In this document: piece after piece, positions 1,783 to 44,092 of the stretch
How positions within the stretch are numbered: the first letter of the stretch is position 1
Layout of the letters: every line of letters starts with the position of its first letter
Translations under genes and position numbers: made by a program
Notes under the pieces: model-generated
Told to the model about the DNA's origin: nothing
Database searches by the model: none
The model's input: the letters and a program-made list of their open reading frames with translations, nothing else
Source of the DNA: Mustelus asterias
Lineage: Eukaryota
NCBI RefSeq assembly: GCF_964213995.1
Contig: NC_135812.1
Coordinates: forward strand, 58,280,001-58,344,000
Direction: 5' to 3'
Length of the DNA: 64,000 bases

Positions 1783-2217
1783 CAGTGCTGGATTTAGGCA
1801 TAAGCTAGACAAACTACAGCTTAGGGCCTCACAATCCGCAGGGGCCTCACAAAATTTCAGAAGGTTTACAATGAAGACAACATTTAAGAGTGGATACCAG
1901 AAAAGAAAAAGAAAGCACCAGCTTGAAGAGCAACTCAAAAAATTACCAAAATTACCAAAATCTATGAGAGATCAAACCAGCCAAATGATAAATATGTAAT
2001 CAGTAAATGCACTCATTTGAAAATAATTTGTATTTTTCACTTTAAATACCTTGCTATTAAATAATTAAAAGGCATAATTATGTTTTCAATTTTTTTGTGG
2101 CGACCCAAGCTCCTGTTTCGTTACGCACCTTTGTGAGACCTTCTGGTGTAACTTTTTAACAAGGGGCCTCCAAGCTTTAGATAGCTTACGGCCTCACCAA
2201 GTCTAAATCCGGCACTG
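1783..2217 (+). mobile_element. hAT-superfamily non-autonomous DNA transposon (internal deletion derivative)
   Basis: 15-bp TIRs CAGTGCTGGATTTAG / CTAAATCCGGCACTG (1 mismatch). 8-bp TSD CGCTGGAC (1775-1782) / CCCTGGAC (2218-2225). The internal peptide MKTTFKSGYQKRKRKHQLEEQLKKLPKL resembles a hAT transposase N-terminus. Confidence 0.8.
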
Positions 2218-2227
2218 CCCTGGACGT

Positions 2228-5200
2228 GCAGCGCTCCCTCTCCCCCCGGCCGCGCAGCGCTCCCTCTCCCCCTGGCCGCGCAGCGCGCTCCCTCTCCCCA
2301 CGGCCGCGCAGCGCGCTCCCTCTCCCCCCAGGCCGCGCAGCGCGCTCCCTCTCCCCCCGGCCGCGCAGCGCTCCCTCTCCCCCCGGCTGCGCAGCGCGCT
2401 CCCTCTCCCCCCGGCCGCGCAGCGCGCTCCCTCTCCCCCGGCCGCGCAGCGCGCTCCCTCTCCCCCCGGCCGCGCAGCGCGCTCCCTCTCCCCCCGGCCG
2501 CGCAGCGCGCTCCCTCTCCCCCCGGCCGCGCAGCGCGCTCTCTCCCCCCGGCCGCGCAGCGCGCTCCCTCTGCCCCCGGCCGCGCAGCGCTCCCTCTCCC
2601 CCCGGCAGCGCAGCGCGCTCCCTCTCCCCCCCGGCCGCGCAGCGCGCTCTCTCCCCCGGCCGCGCAGCGCTCCCTCTCCCCCGGGCCGCGCAGCGCGATC
2701 TCTCCCCCGGCCGCGCAGCGCTCCCTCTCCCCGGGCCGCGCAGCGCGCTCTCTCCCCCGGCCGCACAGCGCTCCCTCTCCCCCGGCCGCGCAGCGTGCTC
2801 TCTCCCCCCGGCCGCGCAGCGTGCTCTCTCCCCCGGCCGCACAGCGCTCCCTCTCCCCCGGCCGCGCAGCGTGCTCTCTCCCCCGGCCGCGCAGCGCGCT
2901 CTCTCCCCCGGCCGCGCAGCGCGCTCCCTCTCCCCCGGCCGCGCAGCGTGCTCTCTCCCCCCGGCCGCGCAGCGCGCTCTCTCCCCCGGCCGCGCAGCGC
3001 GCTCTCTCCCCCGGCCGCGCAGCGTGCTCTCTCCCCCGGCCGCGCAGCGTGCTCTCTCCCCCGGCCGCGCAGCGTGCTCTCTCCCCCGGCCGCGCAGCGT
3101 GCTCTCTCCCCCGGCCGCACAGCGCTCCCTCTCCCCCGGCCGCGCAGCGCGCTCTCTCCCCCGGCCGCGCAGCGCGCTCTCTCCCCCGGCCGCGCAGCGC
3201 GCTCTCTCCCCCCCGGCCGCGCAGCGCTCCTTCTCCACCAGGCCGCGCAGCGCGCTCTCTCCCCCGGCCGCGCAGCGCGCTCTCTCCCCCGGCCGCGCAG
3301 CGCGCTCTCTCCCCCCCGGCCGCGCAGCGCGCTCTCTCCCCCCCGGCCGCGCAGCGCTCCCTCTCCCCCGGGCCGCGCAGCGCGCTCTCTCCCCCGGCCG
3401 CGCAGCGCGCTCTCTCCCCCGGCCGCGCAGCGCGCTCTCTCCCCCGGCCGCGCAGCGCTCCCTCTCCCCCGGCCGCGCAGCGCGCTCTCTCCCCCGGCCG
3501 CGCAGCGCGCTCTCTCCCCCGGCCGCGCAGCGCTCCCTCTCCCCCGGCCGCGCAGCGCGCTCTCTCCCCCGGCCGCGCAGCGCGCTCTCTCCCCCGGCCG
3601 CGCAGCGCGCTCTCTCCCCCGGCCGCGCAGCGCTCCCTCTCCCCCGGCCGCGCAGCGCGCTCTCTCCCCCAGCCGCGCAGCGCGCTCTCTCCCCCGGCCG
3701 CGCAGCGCGCTCTCTCCCCCAGCCGCGCAGCGCGCTCTCTCCCCCGGCCGCGCAGCGCGCTCTCTCCCCCAGCCGCGCAGCGCGCTCTCTCCCCCAGCCG
3801 CGCAGCGCGCTCTCTCCCCCGGCCGCGCAGCGCGCTCTCTCCCCCGGCCGCGCAGCGCGCTCTCTCCCCCAGCCGCGCAGCGCTCCCTCTCCCCCGGCCG
3901 CGCAGCTCGCTCTCTCCCCCGGGCCGCGCAGCGCTCCCTCTCCCCCAGCCGCGCAGCGCTCTCCCCCGGCCGCGCAGCGCGCTCTCTCCCCGGGCCGCGC
4001 AGCGCTCCCTCTCCCCCAGCCGCGCAGCGCTCTCCCCCGGCCGCGCAGCGCGCTCTCTCCCCCGGGCCGCGCAGCGCTCCCTCTCCCCCAGCCGCGCAGC
4101 GCTCTCCCCCGGGCCGCGCAGCGCGCTCTCTCCCCCGGCCGCGCAACGCGATCTCTCCCCCGGGCCGCGCAGCGCTCCCTCTCCCCCAGCCGCGCAGCGC
4201 TCTCCCCCGGCCGCGCAGCGCGCTCTCTCCCCCGGGCCGCGCAGCGCTCCCTCTCCCCCAGCCGCGCAGCGCTCTCCCCCGGGCCGCGCAGCGCGCTCTC
4301 TCCCCCGGCCGCGCAACGCGATCTCTCCCCCGGCCGCGCAGCGCGCACTCTCCCCCGGGCCGCGCAGCGCACTCTCTCCCCCGGCCGCGCAACGCGATCT
4401 CTCCCCCGGGCCGCGCAGCGCGCTCTCTCCCCCGGCCGCGCAGTGCGCTCTCTCCCCCGGCCGCGCAGTGCGCTCTCTCCCCCGGCCGCGAAACGCGCTC
4501 TCTCCCCCGGCCGCGCAGCGCGATCTCTCCCCCGGCTGCGCAGCGCGCTCTCTCCCCCGGCCGCGCAGCGCGCACAATCCCCCGGCCGCGCAGCGCGCTC
4601 TCTTCCCCGGCCGCGCAGCGCTCCCTCTCCCCCGGGCCGCGCAGCGCGCTCCCTCTCCCCCGGGCCGCGCAGCGCGCACAATCCCCCGGCCGCGCAGTGC
4701 GCTCTCTCCCCCGGCCGCGCAACGCGCTCTCTCCCCCGGCCGCGCAGCGTGCTCTCTCCCCCGGCCGCGCAGCGCGCTCTCTCCCCCGGCCGCGCAGCGC
4801 GCTCTCTCCCCCGGCCGCGCAGCGCGCTCTCTCCCCCGGCCGTGCAGCGCTCCCTCTCCCCCGGGCCGCGCAGCGCGATCTCTCCCCCGGCCGCGCAGCG
4901 CGCTCTCTCCCCCGGCCGCGCAGCGCGATCTCTCCCCCGGCCGCGCAGCGCGCTCTCTCCCCCCGGCCGCGCAGCGCGCTCTCTCCCCCGGCCGCGCAGC
5001 GCGCTCTCTCCCCCGGCCGCGCAGCGCGCTTTCTCCCCCGGCCGCGCAGCGCGCTCTCTCCCCCGGCCGCGCAGCGCGCTCTCTCCCCCGGACGCGCAGC
5101 GCGCTCTCTCCCCCGGCCGCGCAGCGTGCTCTCTCCCCCGGCCGCGCAGTGCGCTCTCTCCCCCGGCCGCGCAGCGCTCCCTCTCCCCCGGCCGCGCAGC

Positions 5201-7313
5201 GCGCTCTCTCCCCCGGCCGCGCAGCGCGCTCTCTCCCCCGGCCGCGCAGCGCGCTCTCTCCCCCGGCCGCGCAGCGCGCTCTCTCCCCCGGCCGCGCAGC
5301 GCGCTCTCTCCCCCGGCCGCGCAGCGCGCTCTCTCCCCCGGCCGCGCAGCGCGCTCTCTCCCCCCCGGCCGCGCAGCGTGCTCTCTCCCCCGGCCGCGCA
5401 GCGCGCTCTCTCCCCCCCGGCCGCGCAGCGCGCTCTTTCCCCCGGCCGCGCAGCGCGCCCTCTCCCCCGGCCGCGCAGTGCTCCCTCTCCCCTGGGCCGC
5501 GCAGCACGCTCTCTCCCCCGGCCGCGCAGCGTGCTCTCTCCCCCGGGCCGCGCAGCGCGCCCTCTCCCCCGGGCCGCGCAGCGCGCCCTCTCCCCCGGGC
5601 CGCGCAGCGCGCCCTCTCCCCCGGGCCGCGCAGCGCGCCCTCTCCCCCGGCCGCGCAGCGCTCCCTCTCCCCCCGGCCGCGCAGCGCGCTCTCCCCCCCG
5701 GCCGCGCAGCGCGCTCTCTCCCCCGGCCGCGCAGCGCGCTCTCTCCCCCGGCCGCGCAGCGCGCTCTCTCCCCCGGCCGCGCAGCGTGCTCTCTCCCCCG
5801 GCCGCGCAGCGCTCCCTCTCCCCCAGCCGCGCAGCGCGATCTCTCCCCCGGGCCGCGCAGCGCGCTCCCTCTCCCCCGGCCGCGCAGCGCGCTCTCTCCC
5901 CCGGGCCGCGCAGCGCGCACAATCCCCCGGCCGCGCAGTGCGCTCTCTCCCCCCGGCCGCGCAGCGCGCTCTCTCCCCCGGCCGCGCAGCGCGCTCTCTC
6001 CCCCGGCCGCGCAGCGTGCTCTCTCCCCCAGCCGCGCAGCGCGCTCTCTCCCCCGGCCGCGCAGCGCTCCCTCTCCCCCGGCCGCGCAGCGCGATCTCTC
6101 CCCCGGGCCGCGCAGCGCGCACAATCCCCCGGCCGCGCAGTGCGCTCTCTCCCCCGGCCGCGCAGCGCTCCCTCTCCACCTGGCCGCGCAGCGCGCTCTC
6201 TCCCCCGGCCGCGCAGCGCGATCTCTCCCCCGGCCGCGCAGCGCGCTCTCTCCCCCGGCCGTGCAGCGCTCCCTCTCCCCCGGGCCGCGCAGCGCGATCT
6301 CTCCCCCGGCCGCGCAGCGCGCTCTCTCCCCCCGGCCGCGCAGCGCGATCTCTCCCCCGGCCGCGCAGCGCGCTCTCTCCCCCCGGCCGCGCAGCGCGCT
6401 CTCTCCCCCGGCCGCGCAGCGCGCTCTCTCCCCCGGCCGCGCAGCGCGCTTTCTCCCCCGGCCGCGCAGCGCGCTCTCTCCCCCGGCCGCGCAGCGCGCT
6501 CTCTCCCCCGGCCGCGCAGCGCGCTCTCTCCCCCGGCCGCGCAGCGCGCTCTCTCCCCCGGCCGCGCAGCGCGCTCTCTCCCCCGGCCGCGCAGCGCGCT
6601 CTCTCCCCCCCGGCCGCGCAGCGTGCTCTCTCCCCCGGCCGCGCAGCGTGCTCTCTCCCCCGGCCGCGCAGTGCGCCCTCTCCCCCTGGCCACGCAGCGC
6701 TCCCTCTCCCCCGGGCCGCGCAGCGCGCCCTCTCCCCCGGCCGCGCAGCGCTCCCTCTCCCCTGGGCCGCGCAGCACGCTCTCTCCCCCGGCCGCGCAGC
6801 GCGCTCTCTCCCCCGGCCGCGCAGCGTGCTCTCTCCCCCGGCCGCGCAGTGCGCCCTCTCCCCCTGGCCACGCAGCGCTCCCTCTCCCCCGGCCGCGCAG
6901 CGCTCCCTCTCCCCCGGGCCGCGCAGCGCGCCCTCTCCCCCGGGCCGCGCAGCGCGCCCTCTCCCCCGGCCGCGCAGCGCTCCCTCTCCCCCCGGCCGCG
7001 CAGCGCGCTCTCCCCCCCGGCCGCGCAGCGCGCTCTCCCCCCCGGCCGCGCAGCGCGCTCTCCCCCCCGGCCACGCAGCGCGCTCTCTCCCCCGGCCGCG
7101 CAGCGCGCTCTCTCCCCCGGCCGCGCAGCGCGCTCTCTCCCCCGGCCGCGCAGCGTGCTCTCTCCCCCGGCCTGCAGCGCTCCCTCTCCCCCTGGCCGCG
7201 CAGCGCTCCCTCTCCCCCGGGTCGCGCAGCGCGCTCTCTCCCCCGGCCGCGCAGCGCTCCCTCTCCCCCGGGTCGCGCAGCGCGCTCTCTCCCCCGGCCT
7301 GCAGCGCGCTCTC
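2228..7313. repeat. ~5.1-kb GC-rich minisatellite, 19-24 bp unit (GGCCGCGCAGCGCGCTCTCTCCCCC variants)
   Basis: Direct tandem array with no stop codons in any frame. Degenerate units also occur at ~1706-1780. Confidence 0.97.
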
Positions 7314-8144
7314 TTCCACCAGATGAAGGAAACCCACGAGGACACAGGGAGAAGTGAAAACTCCACACAGCCAGAAACACACCCAGGTCCCTGGAGCTGT
7401 GAGGCTGCAGCGCTGCCAGATTATGTTTCTGATACATCATAAAGCAGAGGTAGATCCCTGCTCTGAGAACTAACACCAAAACACCCAAAGAGGAGTACCT
7501 CACCCTATAATCTGTAAAAGTGTGTGAGAAGCGGTGTGACCTTCGCTCAAGCAACTTCTAGTGGTTAAATAAAAATAAATCCCTGACACTCACTCCAAAA
7601 TCAACACACAATTTATTTATCTAACAGTGAGCAAATGAATTAAAACTACTAACAAACTGAATAAGTCCCTAACTATTAACTATTCCTGAATAAAATAAGA
7701 TTCTAATGGAATACTGTTTAAACAAATACAATTCCCACTCATTAACAAAAATAGAATTTAGTCACTCTCTAAATTACAACCAGGTTTTGTGTCTTCCAGA
7801 ATATTCTGGGCCTTCTCTGTTGATTCTTCTGTCTGGAACTTCTTTCTTCTTTGGTACCTTTGCTATCTAGATGGTGCTTTCTCTAAGACATCGATGAAGC
7901 TATGAGAGCCAGCGATTCTTTCTCGAGAGAGAGTTGAGAGCTGAGAGCTGTTAGCTCTGGCAGGTGGCAGAGTTGCTCTCCCCTCTTTGTCCCACTGCCT
8001 CCTTCTTTTATACCCATGATGACATATCAATATTTCCCACAATAGGATTTGCTCCAGGTTGTCAAAACCATCAGATTTAAATTTAATAGGTTTTTGGTAT
8101 CCAAGTGCCTGATTCAAATTGATCGGCTAAATTCAAAAGCCTGT

Positions 8145-37889: not shown

Positions 37890-38202
37890 AAATCATAGAA
37901 ACCCTACAGTACAGAAAGAGGCCATTCGGCCCATCGAGCCTGCACCGACCACAATCCCACCCAGGCCCTACCCCCATATCCCTACATATTTACCCACTAA
38001 TCCCTCCAACCTACGCATCTCAGGACACTAACGGCAATTTTGAGCATGGCCAATCAACCTAACCCGCACATCTTTGGACTGTGGGAGGAAACCGGAGCAC
38101 CCGGAGGAAACCCACGCAGACACGAGGAGAATGTGCAAACTCCACACAGACAGTGACCCAAGCCGGAAATCGAACCCAGGTCCACTGTGCTACCATGCCG
38201 CC
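37890..38202 (-). mobile_element. HE1-like V-SINE
   Basis: Reverse-complement copy with a short deletion in the head. Confidence 0.88.
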
Positions 38203-38245
38203 CCAAGACACTAGCAGAGAGAGTGTTCCCTTACTATTTGCTGTG

Positions 38246-38600: not shown

Positions 38601-39193
38601 CTCAGGCACGTAGGAGACGTTTCTTAAAAAATCACAAGAGAGAATGAAGACAGCACACAATCGGCCTGCAGCTGTGGAACTGCCTCGTTTGTGTCATATA
38701 TCCTACTGAGGGAACCTGCTTTCCCACAGAAATATCTAAAGTGTTCTGTGAGGCTAGATCCTATGAGGTTGCAATAACAATTGTGGTGATATTAAGGAGA
38801 ACCAGAAGGGAATTGTCCAGCTATCGAACACCCAGCACTCCAGCTGCATCTAAAACACACGCTGAGATGAATTCGGACATTGTTTTCAGGCTGGTCTTCC
38901 GCAGTTTCAATCAGCACTCTGATAAAATACAGGATACCATTGCGTCTACACGTCAATAACACCAATGTGATGAGTCTAGATCTCAGGAAGATGATACTGT
39001 CATGAGATCAATGGAAATCATTAAGCTACCTACTGTCACAAAATCAGTTTTATTTTTTGACACTGTGTGCTTTGTAATCTAGCACCTGTGGGGATTGTAC
39101 CATCCAGCGAACAGGATGTTGCAGTACCTGTTACCTTTAATCCTGCCTAGTAATAAGGGTGGGACCCTCTTGGAGTGTTTTGATAGGTCATCT

Positions 39194-39526
39194 TTTTTTA
39201 AATACTTTTCCAATTCAATCAAATCAAATCCAATTCAGAGTCTCAACAAGTTGAGACATTTCAGATCCAGGCTGACAAGACAGGGCGAGCGACCAAATCA
39301 CCCTGTCCTGGGCCTGATCTACATGAGCCAAGTTGATTGGAGGAGCAAAGCAACACCTCCTCCAAGACTTGAGCTCATTTGCATCTTAGCCAAAAGGCCG
39401 AGATGCCGCTTTTAAAAATTGCTTCATATGAAACATATGAAGCTTCAGTGTAACCCAATAACCTCAACCAAGTGCAGCATCCAATCCATACTACACTTGA
39501 TCTTAGCCAAAAGGCCGAGAAGCGAT
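39194..39526 (-). mobile_element. U2 snRNA-headed retroposed element (U2 nt 1-39, structured body, A-tail)
   Basis: The head matches the U2 5' end and the element ends AAAAGTATTTAAAAAAA. TSD GATAGGTCATCT (39182-39193) / GATAGTTCATCT (39527-39538). Confidence 0.85.
39488..39526 (-). pseudogene. RNU2: U2 snRNA 5' fragment (nt 1-39)
   Basis: ATCGCTTCTCGGCCTTTTGGCTAAGATCAAGTGTAGTAT matches the vertebrate U2 5' end as I recall it. No Sm site or 3' domain follows. Confidence 0.92.
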
Positions 39527-39719
39527 GATAGTTCATCTAGTTCGGTTAAAGGGCCAGTGAAGGGCAGTTCAAGTTTTTGTTAGTTCAAGAGTCAGGAAGA
39601 AGAGAAGACCCCCCATGCAGGCTAAGGTGCAGCTGTTAGCTCTGAGCTGGTTTGGCAGGCTCTAGGTAGTGAGGGCTCAGGGGAAGTTCTGGGGAGTTGA
39701 AAAAGCACTTCAGCTCCTA

Positions 39720-40042
39720 TCATAGAAACCCTACAGTGCAGAAGGAGGCCATTCGGCCCATCGAGTCTGCACCGACCACAATCCCACCCAGGCCCTACCC
39801 CCACATATTTTACCCGCTAATCCCTCTAACTACACATCTCAGGGACAATTTTTAACCTGGCCAATCAACCTAACCCGCACATCTTTGGACTGTGGGAGGA
39901 AACCGGAGCACCCGGAGGAAACCCACGCAGACACGAGGAGAATGTGCAAACTCCACACAGACAGTGACCCGAGCCGGGAATCGAACCCGGGACCCTGGAG
40001 CTGTGAAGCAGCAGTGCTAACCACTGTGCTACCGTGCCGCCC
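39720..40042 (-). mobile_element. HE1-like V-SINE, full-length young copy
   Basis: Complete from head to tail. Confidence 0.92.
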
Positions 40043-40220
40043 TGTATGACACATCCATGTAGATTGCAAATGGCAACCATCTCAACTTTGCAAAACTGTG
40101 GCATTGACAAGTCACTGCGTGAAGCATGACAGAACCCCTTCATCTCCTCAAACCTGATCAGTAATGAAGGATGCTGTTGTACACAGTATGCGCCATCAAT
40201 CATATTAATGTGTGCCCTGT

Positions 40221-40470
40221 TAAGCTTCATTTTCATATGAAGCAATTTTTAAAAGTGGCATCTTGGCCTTTTGGCTAAGATGCAAATGAGATCAAGCCTT
40301 GGAGGCGGAGACGTCTGCCTACTCCAATCAGCTTGGCTCATGTAGATCAGGCCCAAGACAGGGTAGAGGATTGCATACCCTGCCTTGTCAGCTTGGATTG
40401 GAAATGTCTCAACTTGTTGAGACTCTGAATTGGACTTGATTTGATTGAATTGGAAAAGTATTTTTAAAAA
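40221..40470 (+). mobile_element. Headless sister copy of the element at 39194-39526
   Basis: Homologous ~250-bp body including the internal U2-like 21-mer; TSD AATGTGTGCCCT at 40207-40218 and 40469-40480. Confidence 0.85.
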
Positions 40471-41499
40471 TGTGTGCCCTTTGAGGTTTCCAGATTTGAA
40501 TCCTAGCTGATTAAAAAGTTTTACCCCCATAAAGCTTCTGCCTTTAGCTCCATGGAACATGAACCTGTCTAGGATGACATTTTTGTGGCATTCTGGAACT
40601 GTGATTATTCCCAGGACAGAACAATGGAGTCATCATACGTTTGAAGAATGTCTGTCCCAGGAATGAGAGAAAGTTATATAAAATACTGATGGCAGAGTGT
40701 CATGCAGTATAGTTATTTTGCACCAATATCGATGAGAAGCGACACTGAAATGCCTGTGATATCAACTGAGCATTCCTGAAAAATGGCCCAGTGCTTTACA
40801 GTTGGTGATGGTATACACATGCTATACCTCACCCTTAAGAACAGACTCCTCCATGTGTCAAACCAATGAAGTCTTCTTCGACCGGCACATCTTTACAAAA
40901 GGATTCCACTTTAAGCATGAGTCACACGTTTTCCAGTGAGTGGGAAATGGCTCTGTGAATAAATGAGAACTTGTACAATTTAGACTCTGTTTTGAAGGTA
41001 TCTGACTATGATGGGGCATGAGTTATTCAAACTGCTGAGTTCTCTATCCATAACCCTTGCAGTGATCTTCTTGACCCGGGATACATGCCTTTACTCACGA
41101 TTGGGTCTGCTTCCCACCTCAACAATCTATCGGGTCTGGCCCGATAACATGGCCCTCAGGTATCGCCCCCTTAAAGGGCCACGCTACCATCCTCCTTCCC
41201 CCCTAACTCCAGAGTTCACCTATGGAGGAACAAAGAACAGGATTAGAAACGCAAACATGTTTTTTATTAAAGGGTAACAGGAATACCCCATTGAAAAACC
41301 ATTAAGTTTAGCTGGTCCGGGAACTCCCGGATTCTGGCAGAATACCTCCATTCTGTGGCAGGCTTTTCAAAATTTGAAGAATCAGGCTGAACGGATGGAA
41401 AAAACAATTCATCAATCCAGCGTCTGGATCCTCCTTTAGCAGCTGCTGATTCCTCAACTACTGTAACCACCAGTTGCTCAGATCCCTCGTTCCCAATGT

Positions 41500-42019: not shown

Positions 42020-42191
42020 GGGTGGCACAGTGGTTAGCACTGCTGCCTCACAGCGCCAGGAACTCGGGTTCGATTCCTGGCTTGGGTCACTGTCTATGTG
42101 GAGTTTGCATGTTCTCCCTGTGTCTGCATGGGTTTCCTCCAGGTGCTCCGGTTTCCTCCCACAGTCCAAAGATGTGCGGGTTAAGTGGATT
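42020..42191 (+). mobile_element. V-SINE 5' part, split by a LINE insertion; resumes at 44093-44190
   Basis: Ends GTGGATT; 44094 resumes GTGGATTGGCCATGCTAAATTGCCCC. Confidence 0.85.
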
Positions 42192-44092
42192 AGAAACATA
42201 GAAACATAGAAAAACTACAGCACAAAACAGGCCCTTCGGCCCCACAAGTTGTACCGAACATATCCCTACCTTCTAGGCCTACCTATAACCCTCCATCCTA
42301 TTAATTCCCATGTACTCATCCAGGAGTCTCTTAAAAGACCCTATTGAGTTTGCCTCCACCATCACTGACGGCAGCCGATTCCACTCGCCCACCACCCTCT
42401 GTGTGAAAAACTTCCCCCTAACATTTCCCCTCTACCTACACCCCAGCACCTTAAACCTGTGTCCTCTCGTAACAGCCATTTCCACCCTGGGAAAAAGCCT
42501 CTGAGAGTCCACCCGATCTATGCCTCTTAACATCTTATATACCTCTATTAGGTCTCCTCTCATCCTACGTCTCTCCAAGGAGAAAAGACCAAGCTCCCTC
42601 AGCCTATCCTCATAAGGCATGCCATTCAATCCAGGCAACATCCTTGTAAATCTCCTCTGCACTCTTTCAATCTTTTCCACATCCTTCCTGTAATGAGGTG
42701 ACCAGAACTGAGCACAGTACTCCAAGTGGTGTCTGACGAGGGTCTTATATAGCTGCATCATTATCCCCGGACTCCTAAACTCAATCCCTCGATTGATAAA
42801 GGCCAGCACATACGCCTTCTTAACCACCTCCTCCACCTGCGGGGCCGATTTTAGAGTCCTATGGACCCGGACCCCAAGGTCCTTCTGATCCTCTACAGTA
42901 CTAAGAGTCTTTCCCTTTATATTATCATAGAATCATAGAAACCCTACAGTGCAGAAGGAGGCCATTCGGCCCATCGAGTCTGCACCGACAACAATCCCAC
43001 CCAGGCCCTACCTCCACATATTTACCCGCTAATCCCTCTAACCTACACATTTTAGGATTCTAAGGGGCAATTTTTAACCTGGCCAATCAACCTAACCCGC
43101 ACATCTTTGGACTGTGGGAGGAAACCGGAGCACCCGGAGGAAACCCACACAGACACGAGGAGAATGTACTCCTTCATCCCATTTGACCTGCCAAAATGGA
43201 CCACGACGCATTTATCTGGGTTGAAGTCCATCTGCCACTTGTCCGCCCAGTCTTGCATCCTATCTATGTCCCTCTGTAACTTCTGACATCCCTCCAGACT
43301 ATCCACAACCCCACCAACCTTCGTGTCGTCGGCAAACTTACCAACCCATCCCTCCACTTCCTCATCCAGGTCATTTATGAAAATGACAAACAGCAAGGGT
43401 CCCAGAACAGATCCCTGGGGCACACCACTGGTGACCGACCTCCATTTAGAAAAAGGCCCATCTATCCCCACTCTCTGCCTCCTTTGGGCAAGCCAGTTTT
43501 GGATCCACAGGGCAGCAGCCCTTTGGATCCCATGCCCTCTCACTTTTTCTAGAAGCCTTGCATGGGAGACCTTATCGAACGCCTTGCTAAAATCCATATA
43601 AACCACATCTACCGCTTTCCCTTCCTCAATGTGTTTAGTCACATTTTCGAAGAACTCCACCAGGCTCGTAAGGCACGATCTCCCTTTGACAAAGCCATGC
43701 TGAGTATTCTTGAGCATACTAAACCTCTCTAAATGCTCATAAATCTTGTCCCTCAGGATCTTCTCCATCAGCTTACCAACCACTGAGGTTAGACTCACCG
43801 ATCGGTAATTTCCTGGGCTATCCCTATTCCCCTTCTTGAAAATAGGAACCACATCCGCAATCCTCCAATCCTCTGGCACCTCTCCCGTCTCCATCGACGA
43901 CGCAAAGATCATCGCCAGAGATTCTGCAATCTCTTCCCTCGCCTCCCACAGTAACCTGGGGTACATCCCATCCGGACCCGGCAACTTATCTATCTTGATG
44001 CCATTCAAAGATTCCAGCACAACCTCTTTGTTAAAGTCCACATACTCAATCTTTTCAGTCCACCGCAAGCCCGCAGTACATCCACCCAGGAT
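42192..44092 (-). mobile_element. CR1-clade (HER1-like) LINE, 5'-truncated, nearly intact RT region
   Basis: PGPDG, NYRSVSLTSVVGKLME, QHGF, DFSKAFD, GVPQGSVLGP and KFADD motifs; (CTATGTTT)n tail. Interrupted by a SINE at 42925-43165. Confidence 0.93.
42925..43165 (-). mobile_element. HE1-like SINE, 5'-truncated, inserted in the CR1 LINE
   Basis: The V-domain and tail interrupt the RT frame. Confidence 0.9.

Follow-up and report, generated by a model that had tools for sequence, protein, structure and literature searches.

The internal U2 snRNA piece of a retroelement in the shark Mustelus asterias very probably began as the head of an older, monomeric SINE derived from U2 and was later overlaid by a new U2 head. 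The family that carries it is best read as a young SINEU-like element borrowing the U2 promoter and paired with a Keno-like LINE. The whole account, with a new U2 head likely added in front of the old one and the old one likely kept as the only predicted stem-loop I, is considered probable. The window analysed is 64,000 nt of contig NC_135812.1 (positions 58,280,001 to 58,344,000), and contains two copies of the element.

Anatomy of the element and position of the motif

Copy A is a full-length U2-headed SINE of about 334 nt including its A tail (39193..39526, minus strand), and gives the sole Rfam match in the window (U2, 51.7 bits). Among 40 genomic candidates scored, 39 more copies were 97-99% identical to it. 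Its current head is U2 nt 1-39 (39488..39526, minus), with 39/39 nt identical to the U2 array gene, behind which U2 nt 11-39 recur in antisense, exactly in register (39452..39480, minus; 15/29 identical, with 10 changes that keep pairing as G-U). The short hairpin 2 (39422..39444, minus) has three length variants among subfamilies and 99.0% of its cells paired. Left and right modules are joined by an A-U5-A-rich linker (39407..39421, minus; 98.0% identity excluding CpG), which is similar to the family's own 3' tail and loosely similar to an Sm site without the 3' G. The right module opens with its putative old head, an internal copy of U2 nt 4-27 in which stem-loop I is lengthened by 3 bp (39381..39406, minus). 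Hairpin 3 (39324..39379, minus) is a duplicate of hairpin 4, starts with an 8-mer similar to U2 nt 24-31 and has a hypervariable tip. Hairpin 4 (39264..39321, minus) has a 3' arm with 16/23 matches to U2 nt 40-62 and one pair with an A-U/G-U/G-C series. Hairpin 5 (39241..39258, minus) corresponds by alignment to a stem-loop IIb-like region in the older family described below; aligned directly to U2, neither it nor the tail scored significantly (533/1000 and 716/1000 shuffles). The 3' tail (39193..39240, minus) ends in a short motif common to the Keno-like LINE, then oligo-A. The target-site duplication of copy A is 12 bp long, with the 5' copy at 39527..39538 (minus) and the 3' copy, with one mismatch, at 39182-39193.

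Copy B (40222..40468, plus strand) is 5'-truncated, covers element nt 82-334, belongs to a different subfamily and is 86.6% identical to copy A. Its target-site duplication is 12 bp and exact (40207-40218 and 40469-40480). Its internal stem-loop I copy (40258..40283, plus) differs by a single C-to-T change at a CpG that closes the C-A mismatch of the stem.

The first-pass annotation had reported U2 nt 7-27 in both copies, separate from the U2 head, with U2-like sequence resuming after a spacer, and on these points it was right. The 21-mer lies at 39403-39383 (minus) with no mismatch and at 40261-40281 (plus) with one, and with up to three mismatches it was found elsewhere in the 64-kb window only in the U2 head at 39520. 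The head itself occupies 39526-39488. The internal match extends to U2 nt 4-27 (23/24, with a single change at nt 6), and is followed by a spacer of 7 nt and then by 7/8 matches to U2 nt 24-31, equalled in 6/1000 shuffles, which form the base of the duplicated hairpin. The motif is placed at nt 121-144 of the element of about 335 nt, some 190 nt from its 3' end. It is not a chance match, since the 24-mer over motif and spacer has 4,674 exact matches in the genome and the reversed control has none. The internal U2 piece is thus confirmed as a genuine feature.

Two other parts of the window were recorded. An unrelated dispersed repeat of about 320 nt, which resembles tRNA-derived shark SINEs, lies between copies A and B (39719-40042) and also at 37892-38203, 42021-42191 and 42932-43216. 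The 6 kb at positions 2001-8000 have a G+C content of 68-83%, are strongly skewed in C and T, and probably form a tandem repeat.

Abundance, dispersal and classification

Counted by the exact motif 24-mer, the SINE has at least 4,674 copies in the genome of 3.68 Gb, and its 3' anchor has 5,592 exact matches. An unbiased sample of 75 copies was drawn by the 3' anchor from the first 41 Mb of contig C1, which avoids selecting on the motif. The 5' end of the copy falls in nt 1-29 of the U2 head in 61/75 cases, and an exact target-site duplication of at least 9 nt is present in 36/75 (5-9 in mismatched controls). U2 nt 38-50 directly after the copy was found in none of the 75, so that U2 flanks are absent from the sample. 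Starts in the head, duplications and the lack of U2 sites together therefore identify a dispersed SINE with the motif in mid-element. The motif had been assigned to the 3' region of the retroelement; a place in the 3' region of a LINE was not borne out, as the copies start in the U2 head and the LINE is alike only in U2 pieces and the A-tail end.

The traits of SINEU elements, whose heads come from U1 or U2 snRNA, were found in this family. Its head is U2 nt 1-39, and the copies are short, non-coding, A-tailed and numerous, with target-site duplications. It is a transposition unit of its own rather than a set of independent U2-LINE chimeras, as the body is missing from the LINE of the U2 array and the subfamilies share diagnostic changes. 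Recurrent 5' addition of snRNA pieces is seen in 25 copies with extra U2 and in the right half, which resembles an older U2-headed monomer. An origin independent of the crocodilian SINEU-1 to SINEU-3 is likelier than common descent.

No report of an snRNA-headed SINE in a shark or other cartilaginous fish was found in the literature searched; Repbase and subscription papers were outside that search, and the family may be catalogued there. In the accessible parts of PMC5381603, PMC5786205 and PMC4758252, only the crocodilian SINEUs are cited (Kojima 2015). A run look-up listed 20 holders from 11 studies, with six organisms at a share of at least 0.30, and no RNA holder among the matches listed.

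Clustered A-to-G changes on the RNA strand were observed at L093:1229-1553 (11/16 changes), and also in the minus copy of L084, in L051 and in L061, as expected if A-to-I-edited RNA was reverse transcribed. Across the family such changes are not in excess (64 A>G vs 58 T>C). At L035, L041, L056, L084, L175 and L181 one copy has integrated, in the opposite orientation, into another copy's 5' hairpin.

Older U2-derived family and origin of the motif

The older family was found via the U2-gene junction L222, and its loci are L264-L278 and L311-L340. It is about 250 nt long and has at least 851 copies, as counted by exact matches of one 21-mer; 1,524 candidates were found at about 85% identity. 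It consists of a U2 head that reaches about nt 31, followed by a hairpin, by parts resembling stem-loop IIb, the Sm site and stem-loop III, and by an A tail. The hairpin replaces U2 nt 32-66 and the remainder is collinear, degenerate U2, with scores of 48-61 against U2 nt 61-191 in the five copies tested, compared with shuffled means near 22 and maxima of 34-50. The U2 head is present in 13/30 consecutive copies, several of which start at nt 1. Nothing resembling the left module of the SINE was found in any of these 13 U2-headed copies.

The 5' half of the older family aligns to the right half of the SINE with scores of 87-99 in 5/5 copies tested, against shuffled maxima of 42-49. Furthermore, two of 30 SINE copies of the old subfamily (L282 and L297) retain the post-motif junction of the older family, without the 3-bp extension. 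On this alignment and these retained junctions the motif is read as the old head.

Stacking of heads is ongoing. An extra 5' piece of U2 stands in front of 25/228 copies, and 21 of the 25 pieces end at nt 52-57, although the lower bound of these end-points was set by the search pattern for most. U2 nt 53-60 are also a loop of U2. An adjacent copy lies beside 18/75 of the unbiased copies. The joining event of left and right modules was not seen directly, because no free left module was found: 29/30 matches are followed by the motif at 20/26 or better, and the 30th at 19. The older monomer would have gained U2 nt 1-39 with the fold-back module at its front, via tandem insertion at one site or via 5' addition, and would have shed its Sm site and its stem-loop III.

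U2 genes, Keno-like LINE and promoter context

Two U2 arrays are located on C24, with units of 1,833 bp and 8,035 bp. The 8,035-bp unit (C24:44.81-44.94 Mb; L198-L200 and L211) is repeated about 16 times and holds one intact U2 gene and a Keno-like LINE, which ends before U2 nt 38 in every unit examined. The LINE encodes a zinc-knuckle ORF1, an AP-type endonuclease and a reverse transcriptase (matches to PF03372 and PF00078); ORF2 is interrupted in the one unit read. Insertion before U2 nt 38/39 is the site of Keno and Utopia, as far as the accessible text of PMC4640811 goes. The LINE is called Keno-like on the basis of its AP-type endonuclease together with this site. A part of its protein gave a 70% match to a Heterodontus entry, and none of the 35 matches was labelled Tx1 or Keno. 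This LINE is a candidate mobiliser of the SINE, having an AP endonuclease and the same U2 site and tail. The two have a short common 3' end and are otherwise alike only in U2-derived pieces. When the element was compared with the LINE unit, matches were confined to U2-derived pieces in the LINE head and the U2 gene, and the motif is absent from the LINE.

SINE insertions in U2 genes are rare, lie at nt 38 and duplicate U2 nt 38-55. The first array terminates in a stack of three insertions at this nt-38 site (SINE, truncated LINE, SINE), with U2 nt 38-55 between each and the next. Copies of the SINE at U2 loci lie at C1:80.33, C2:160.60, C8:80.29, C14:62.23, C21:28.06 and C24:43.06 Mb. The genome contains 33 junctions of an A tail with U2 nt 38-52. 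The 19 examined comprise 7 SINE copies, 10 LINE-type 3' ends, 1 copy of the older family and 1 other, and 13 of the remaining 14 are spaced at the period of the second array. The association with U2 loci that had been anticipated is therefore real, as both SINE copies and the Keno-like LINE sit in U2 genes.

A second U2 variant (C21:28.05-28.08 Mb; L254, L258, L260 and L261) is about 90% identical to the main U2 and has its own upstream flank. Of 17 matches to its upstream motif, 13 are followed by a SINE (8) or a LINE (5), and 4 by intact U2. Five of the 8 on the SINE side have at least 130 nt of flank, and three have only 29-88 nt, behind another U2 piece; two of these three are at dispersed sites. 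L142 carries 7 nt of this flank. The main-array upstream motif is followed by the SINE in at least 1/58 cases. SINE copies thus stand at U2 nt 38, beside a Keno-like LINE of the same site and tail and behind U2 upstream flanks. Such copies are probably masters read from the U2 promoter, which the LINE enzyme would copy to mostly random, non-U2 sites.

The dispersed SINE at L248 (C6:82.47 Mb) has 88 nt of the variant-U2 upstream flank, possibly enough for a proximal promoter element, and so might found a new master. At L021 and L169 a SINE copy directly follows a Keno-like 3' end at non-U2 sites, which suggests that SINE and LINE have common off-target sites. At C24:43.02-43.055 Mb (L192-L195) one or two repeats of nt 18-37 stand in place of nt 38-48 in about ten units of the U2 array; such units are likely variants without function that spread through the array.

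Predicted fold

The predicted fold of copy A has z = -10, and that of one old decayed copy z = -2.5. The change at nt 6 and two bases after nt 27 make the internal stem-loop I 3 bp longer, and its predicted energy goes from -8.2 to -15.9 kcal/mol. All scored positions were available in 51/66 aligned copies. Stem-loop I of the head was predicted in 0/51, internal stem-loop I in 50/51 and the helix of head with antisense in 50/51, so that no stem-loop I but the internal one is predicted to form, the head being engaged with its antisense copy. Mean pairing probability of head nt 33-36 is 0.89, and the branch-point-pairing nt 33-38 are predicted to be buried. That the antisense segment might pair with the internal copy, and not with the head, was considered and dismissed, with 0.01 pairs expected. 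The 5' end of the LINE is likewise predicted to fold back onto its own U2 head.

The 5' bases of U2 pair with U6 and with the branch point. In the predicted fold the new head pairs with the antisense segment and would hide these bases, while the old head would provide the lengthened stem-loop I. The masking of the head may serve as protection against splicing interference.

Constancy of the motif and alternative explanations

Constancy was calculated in the 65 anchored near-full copies that remain when the 10 shortest are removed from the 75. Identity of the 21-mer to the majority is 97.7% (98.0% without CpG). Among windows clear of the anchor, 4/218 reach this identity, three of them made up of the motif and its neighbours and one of the U tract just upstream. 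Positions with a variant common to at least 5 of the 65 copies number 0/21 in the motif, 72/238 elsewhere and 43/171 in stems (Fisher P 0.0008 and 0.003, which are overstated, the columns not being independent). The motif belongs to an invariant run of 31 nt, and there are five other invariant runs of 12-32 nt, one of which overlaps the selection anchor. Private changes amount to 1.7% in the motif and 0.3-2.6% elsewhere; the rate in the motif is not lowered, and therefore nothing acts on it after insertion. The expectation that the 21-mer would be more conserved than its flanks was accordingly upheld in part: it is more constant between subfamilies than most of the body, but private changes in it are not fewer and other invariant runs exist.

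No two-sided compensatory change was found in the helices of the motif. In the whole structure, pairs with a two-sided change number 4 (7.9 in shuffles), and the 54 cells that have one are more than in any of 500 shuffles. Run on the raw alignment, RNAalifold yielded weak covariation (term -0.39), with a two-sided change in 1/44 pairs, values that are limited by gappy hairpin tips. Complete deletion of the motif occurs once genome-wide, in a copy behind the main-array promoter that has no progeny, and could have taken place after insertion; the other match is a partial deletion. Selection on the motif hairpin is considered likely, and active masters would then have been selected to retain the hairpin.

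The motif could instead be a neutral relic, an old head without any role, whose constancy comes from few master lineages and from change concentrated in hairpin tips. The other long invariant runs, the lack of compensatory double change in the motif and its ordinary private mutation rate are what such a relic would show. Nevertheless, this explanation is rather unlikely, as shared variants are absent from the 21 motif positions and present at 43/171 stem positions, and as the motif has kept 21/21 matches to U2, whereas the arm derived from U2 nt 40-62 has only 16/23. Also, the derived 3-bp extension is predicted to stabilise the hairpin by the change in energy given above, and its sole shared change, C-G to U-G in 11/66 copies, preserves pairing.

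A further reading extends the origin account rather than competing with it. The first-pass annotation had also put forward snRNA mimicry for stability or localisation, with which the greater constancy of the motif between subfamilies is compatible. The Sm site is a single-stranded purine-A-U(4-6)-G-purine sequence, with which Sm binding and the trimethyl cap are connected. The locked stem-loop I and the U5 tract would let the transcript, as a disarmed snRNA mimic, enter snRNP maturation (export, Sm loading, cap hypermethylation and re-import), and it might thereby become more stable, reach the LINE protein and return to the nucleus. The U2-promoter context, the 98.0% conservation of the U tract with hairpins on both sides, the clear Sm site and stem-loop III retained in the older family, and the LINE 5' end that also folds back on its U2 head are in agreement with it. 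However, the tract has no 3' G of the Sm consensus, with A or U following A-U5, the predicted minimum-energy fold has it paired, and it resembles an old 3' tail, so this reading is doubtful. Equally tentative is the broader proposal of the lineage as a disarmed U2 snRNA, renewed and transcribed via Keno-site landing in U2 genes, with its head hidden by antisense and with selection for a locked stem-loop I and U tract to ride the snRNP pathway, and of SINEU-type elements generally as living on captured U2 promoters.

The first-pass annotation had proposed for the motif a role in steering insertion towards U2 genes or in promoting a template switch onto U2 RNA, which is largely refuted and very improbable: despite 7 SINE copies among the 19 examined junctions at U2 nt 38 and one locus (L123) with a U2-headed insert joined at the motif, the motif (U2 nt 4-27) differs from the target (nt 38, with nt 38-55 duplicated) and is far from the 3' end, none of the 75 unbiased copies has U2 beside it, the older family and the LINE use the same U2 site without an internal copy, and a U2-type 5' end was found in 0/227 internal copies. 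These 227 include many chosen by likeness to full elements; 2/227 run into U2, both at L123, which is one duplicated event found by a U2 search. The preferred reading of the motif is that of an old head, probably retained by selection.

Significance

The internal motif alone is the least novel part, as buried older heads are already described for SINEU-1 in the accessible text of PMC4494074. The same text presents the transcription of snRNA-headed SINEs without an internal promoter as a puzzle, which is now testable at named loci, because copies lie immediately behind the upstream flanks of U2, and some at dispersed sites bring such flanks with them. The occurrence of SINEU-like elements is extended to a shark genome, one family being paired with a LINE that targets U2, and the steps between U2 gene, monomer and two-headed SINE are preserved as intermediates. 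Selection on the motif and on the masking of the head would be new, if true, and would show how a parasite uses the promoter of a spliceosomal RNA and leaves splicing unharmed.

Comparison with known elements

Dimeric Alu consists of two modules of the same small RNA with an A/T-rich linker, the right one retaining the old head. The shark SINE is similarly made of two U2 modules and an A/T-rich linker, with the old head in the right module. Unlike Alu, it is snRNA-derived, an internal Pol III promoter is not expected, and a free left module was not found.

The array LINE is similar to Keno (Tx1 clade) and Utopia, which end before U2 nt 38/39 in the accessible texts of PMC4640811 and PMC4494074, and its duplication of about 18 bp is close to the 20 bp given for reptile Utopia in the former. 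The shark SINE differs from Keno and Utopia in being non-coding and mostly dispersed.

The older family resembles SINEU-3 as described in the accessible part of PMC4494074: the first 31-32 nt or so of U2 are kept, the next 35-50 nt or so are removed or replaced, and the 3' part is retained. It differs in that the gap holds a hairpin partly derived from U2 nt 38-62, and in its dispersed sites, occasionally at U2 nt 38.

SINEU-1 is the closest parallel to the younger family by description. According to the accessible text of Kojima 2015 (PMC4494074), U1 and U2 pieces were added to SINEU-1 one after another, no SINEU was found outside crocodilians, and SINEU transcription is an open question. Both SINEU-1, as presented there, and the shark SINE are shorter than 500 nt, with a U2-derived head, an A tail and internal T runs. 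Both have buried older snRNA pieces from repeated 5' addition, single-copy 5' snRNA extensions and tandem insertions around one duplication, and the Tx1-type partner with a U2 head has a putative counterpart in the LINE of the shark. The shark family differs in its host and in its youth, with copies up to 98-99% alike. Its putative partner is at the Keno site of U2 nt 38 and not, as in that text, at Mariner-N4; the 3' end common with the LINE is seen, and copies stand behind U2 upstream flanks. Its head is masked by antisense, and its predicted structure is extreme (z = -10).
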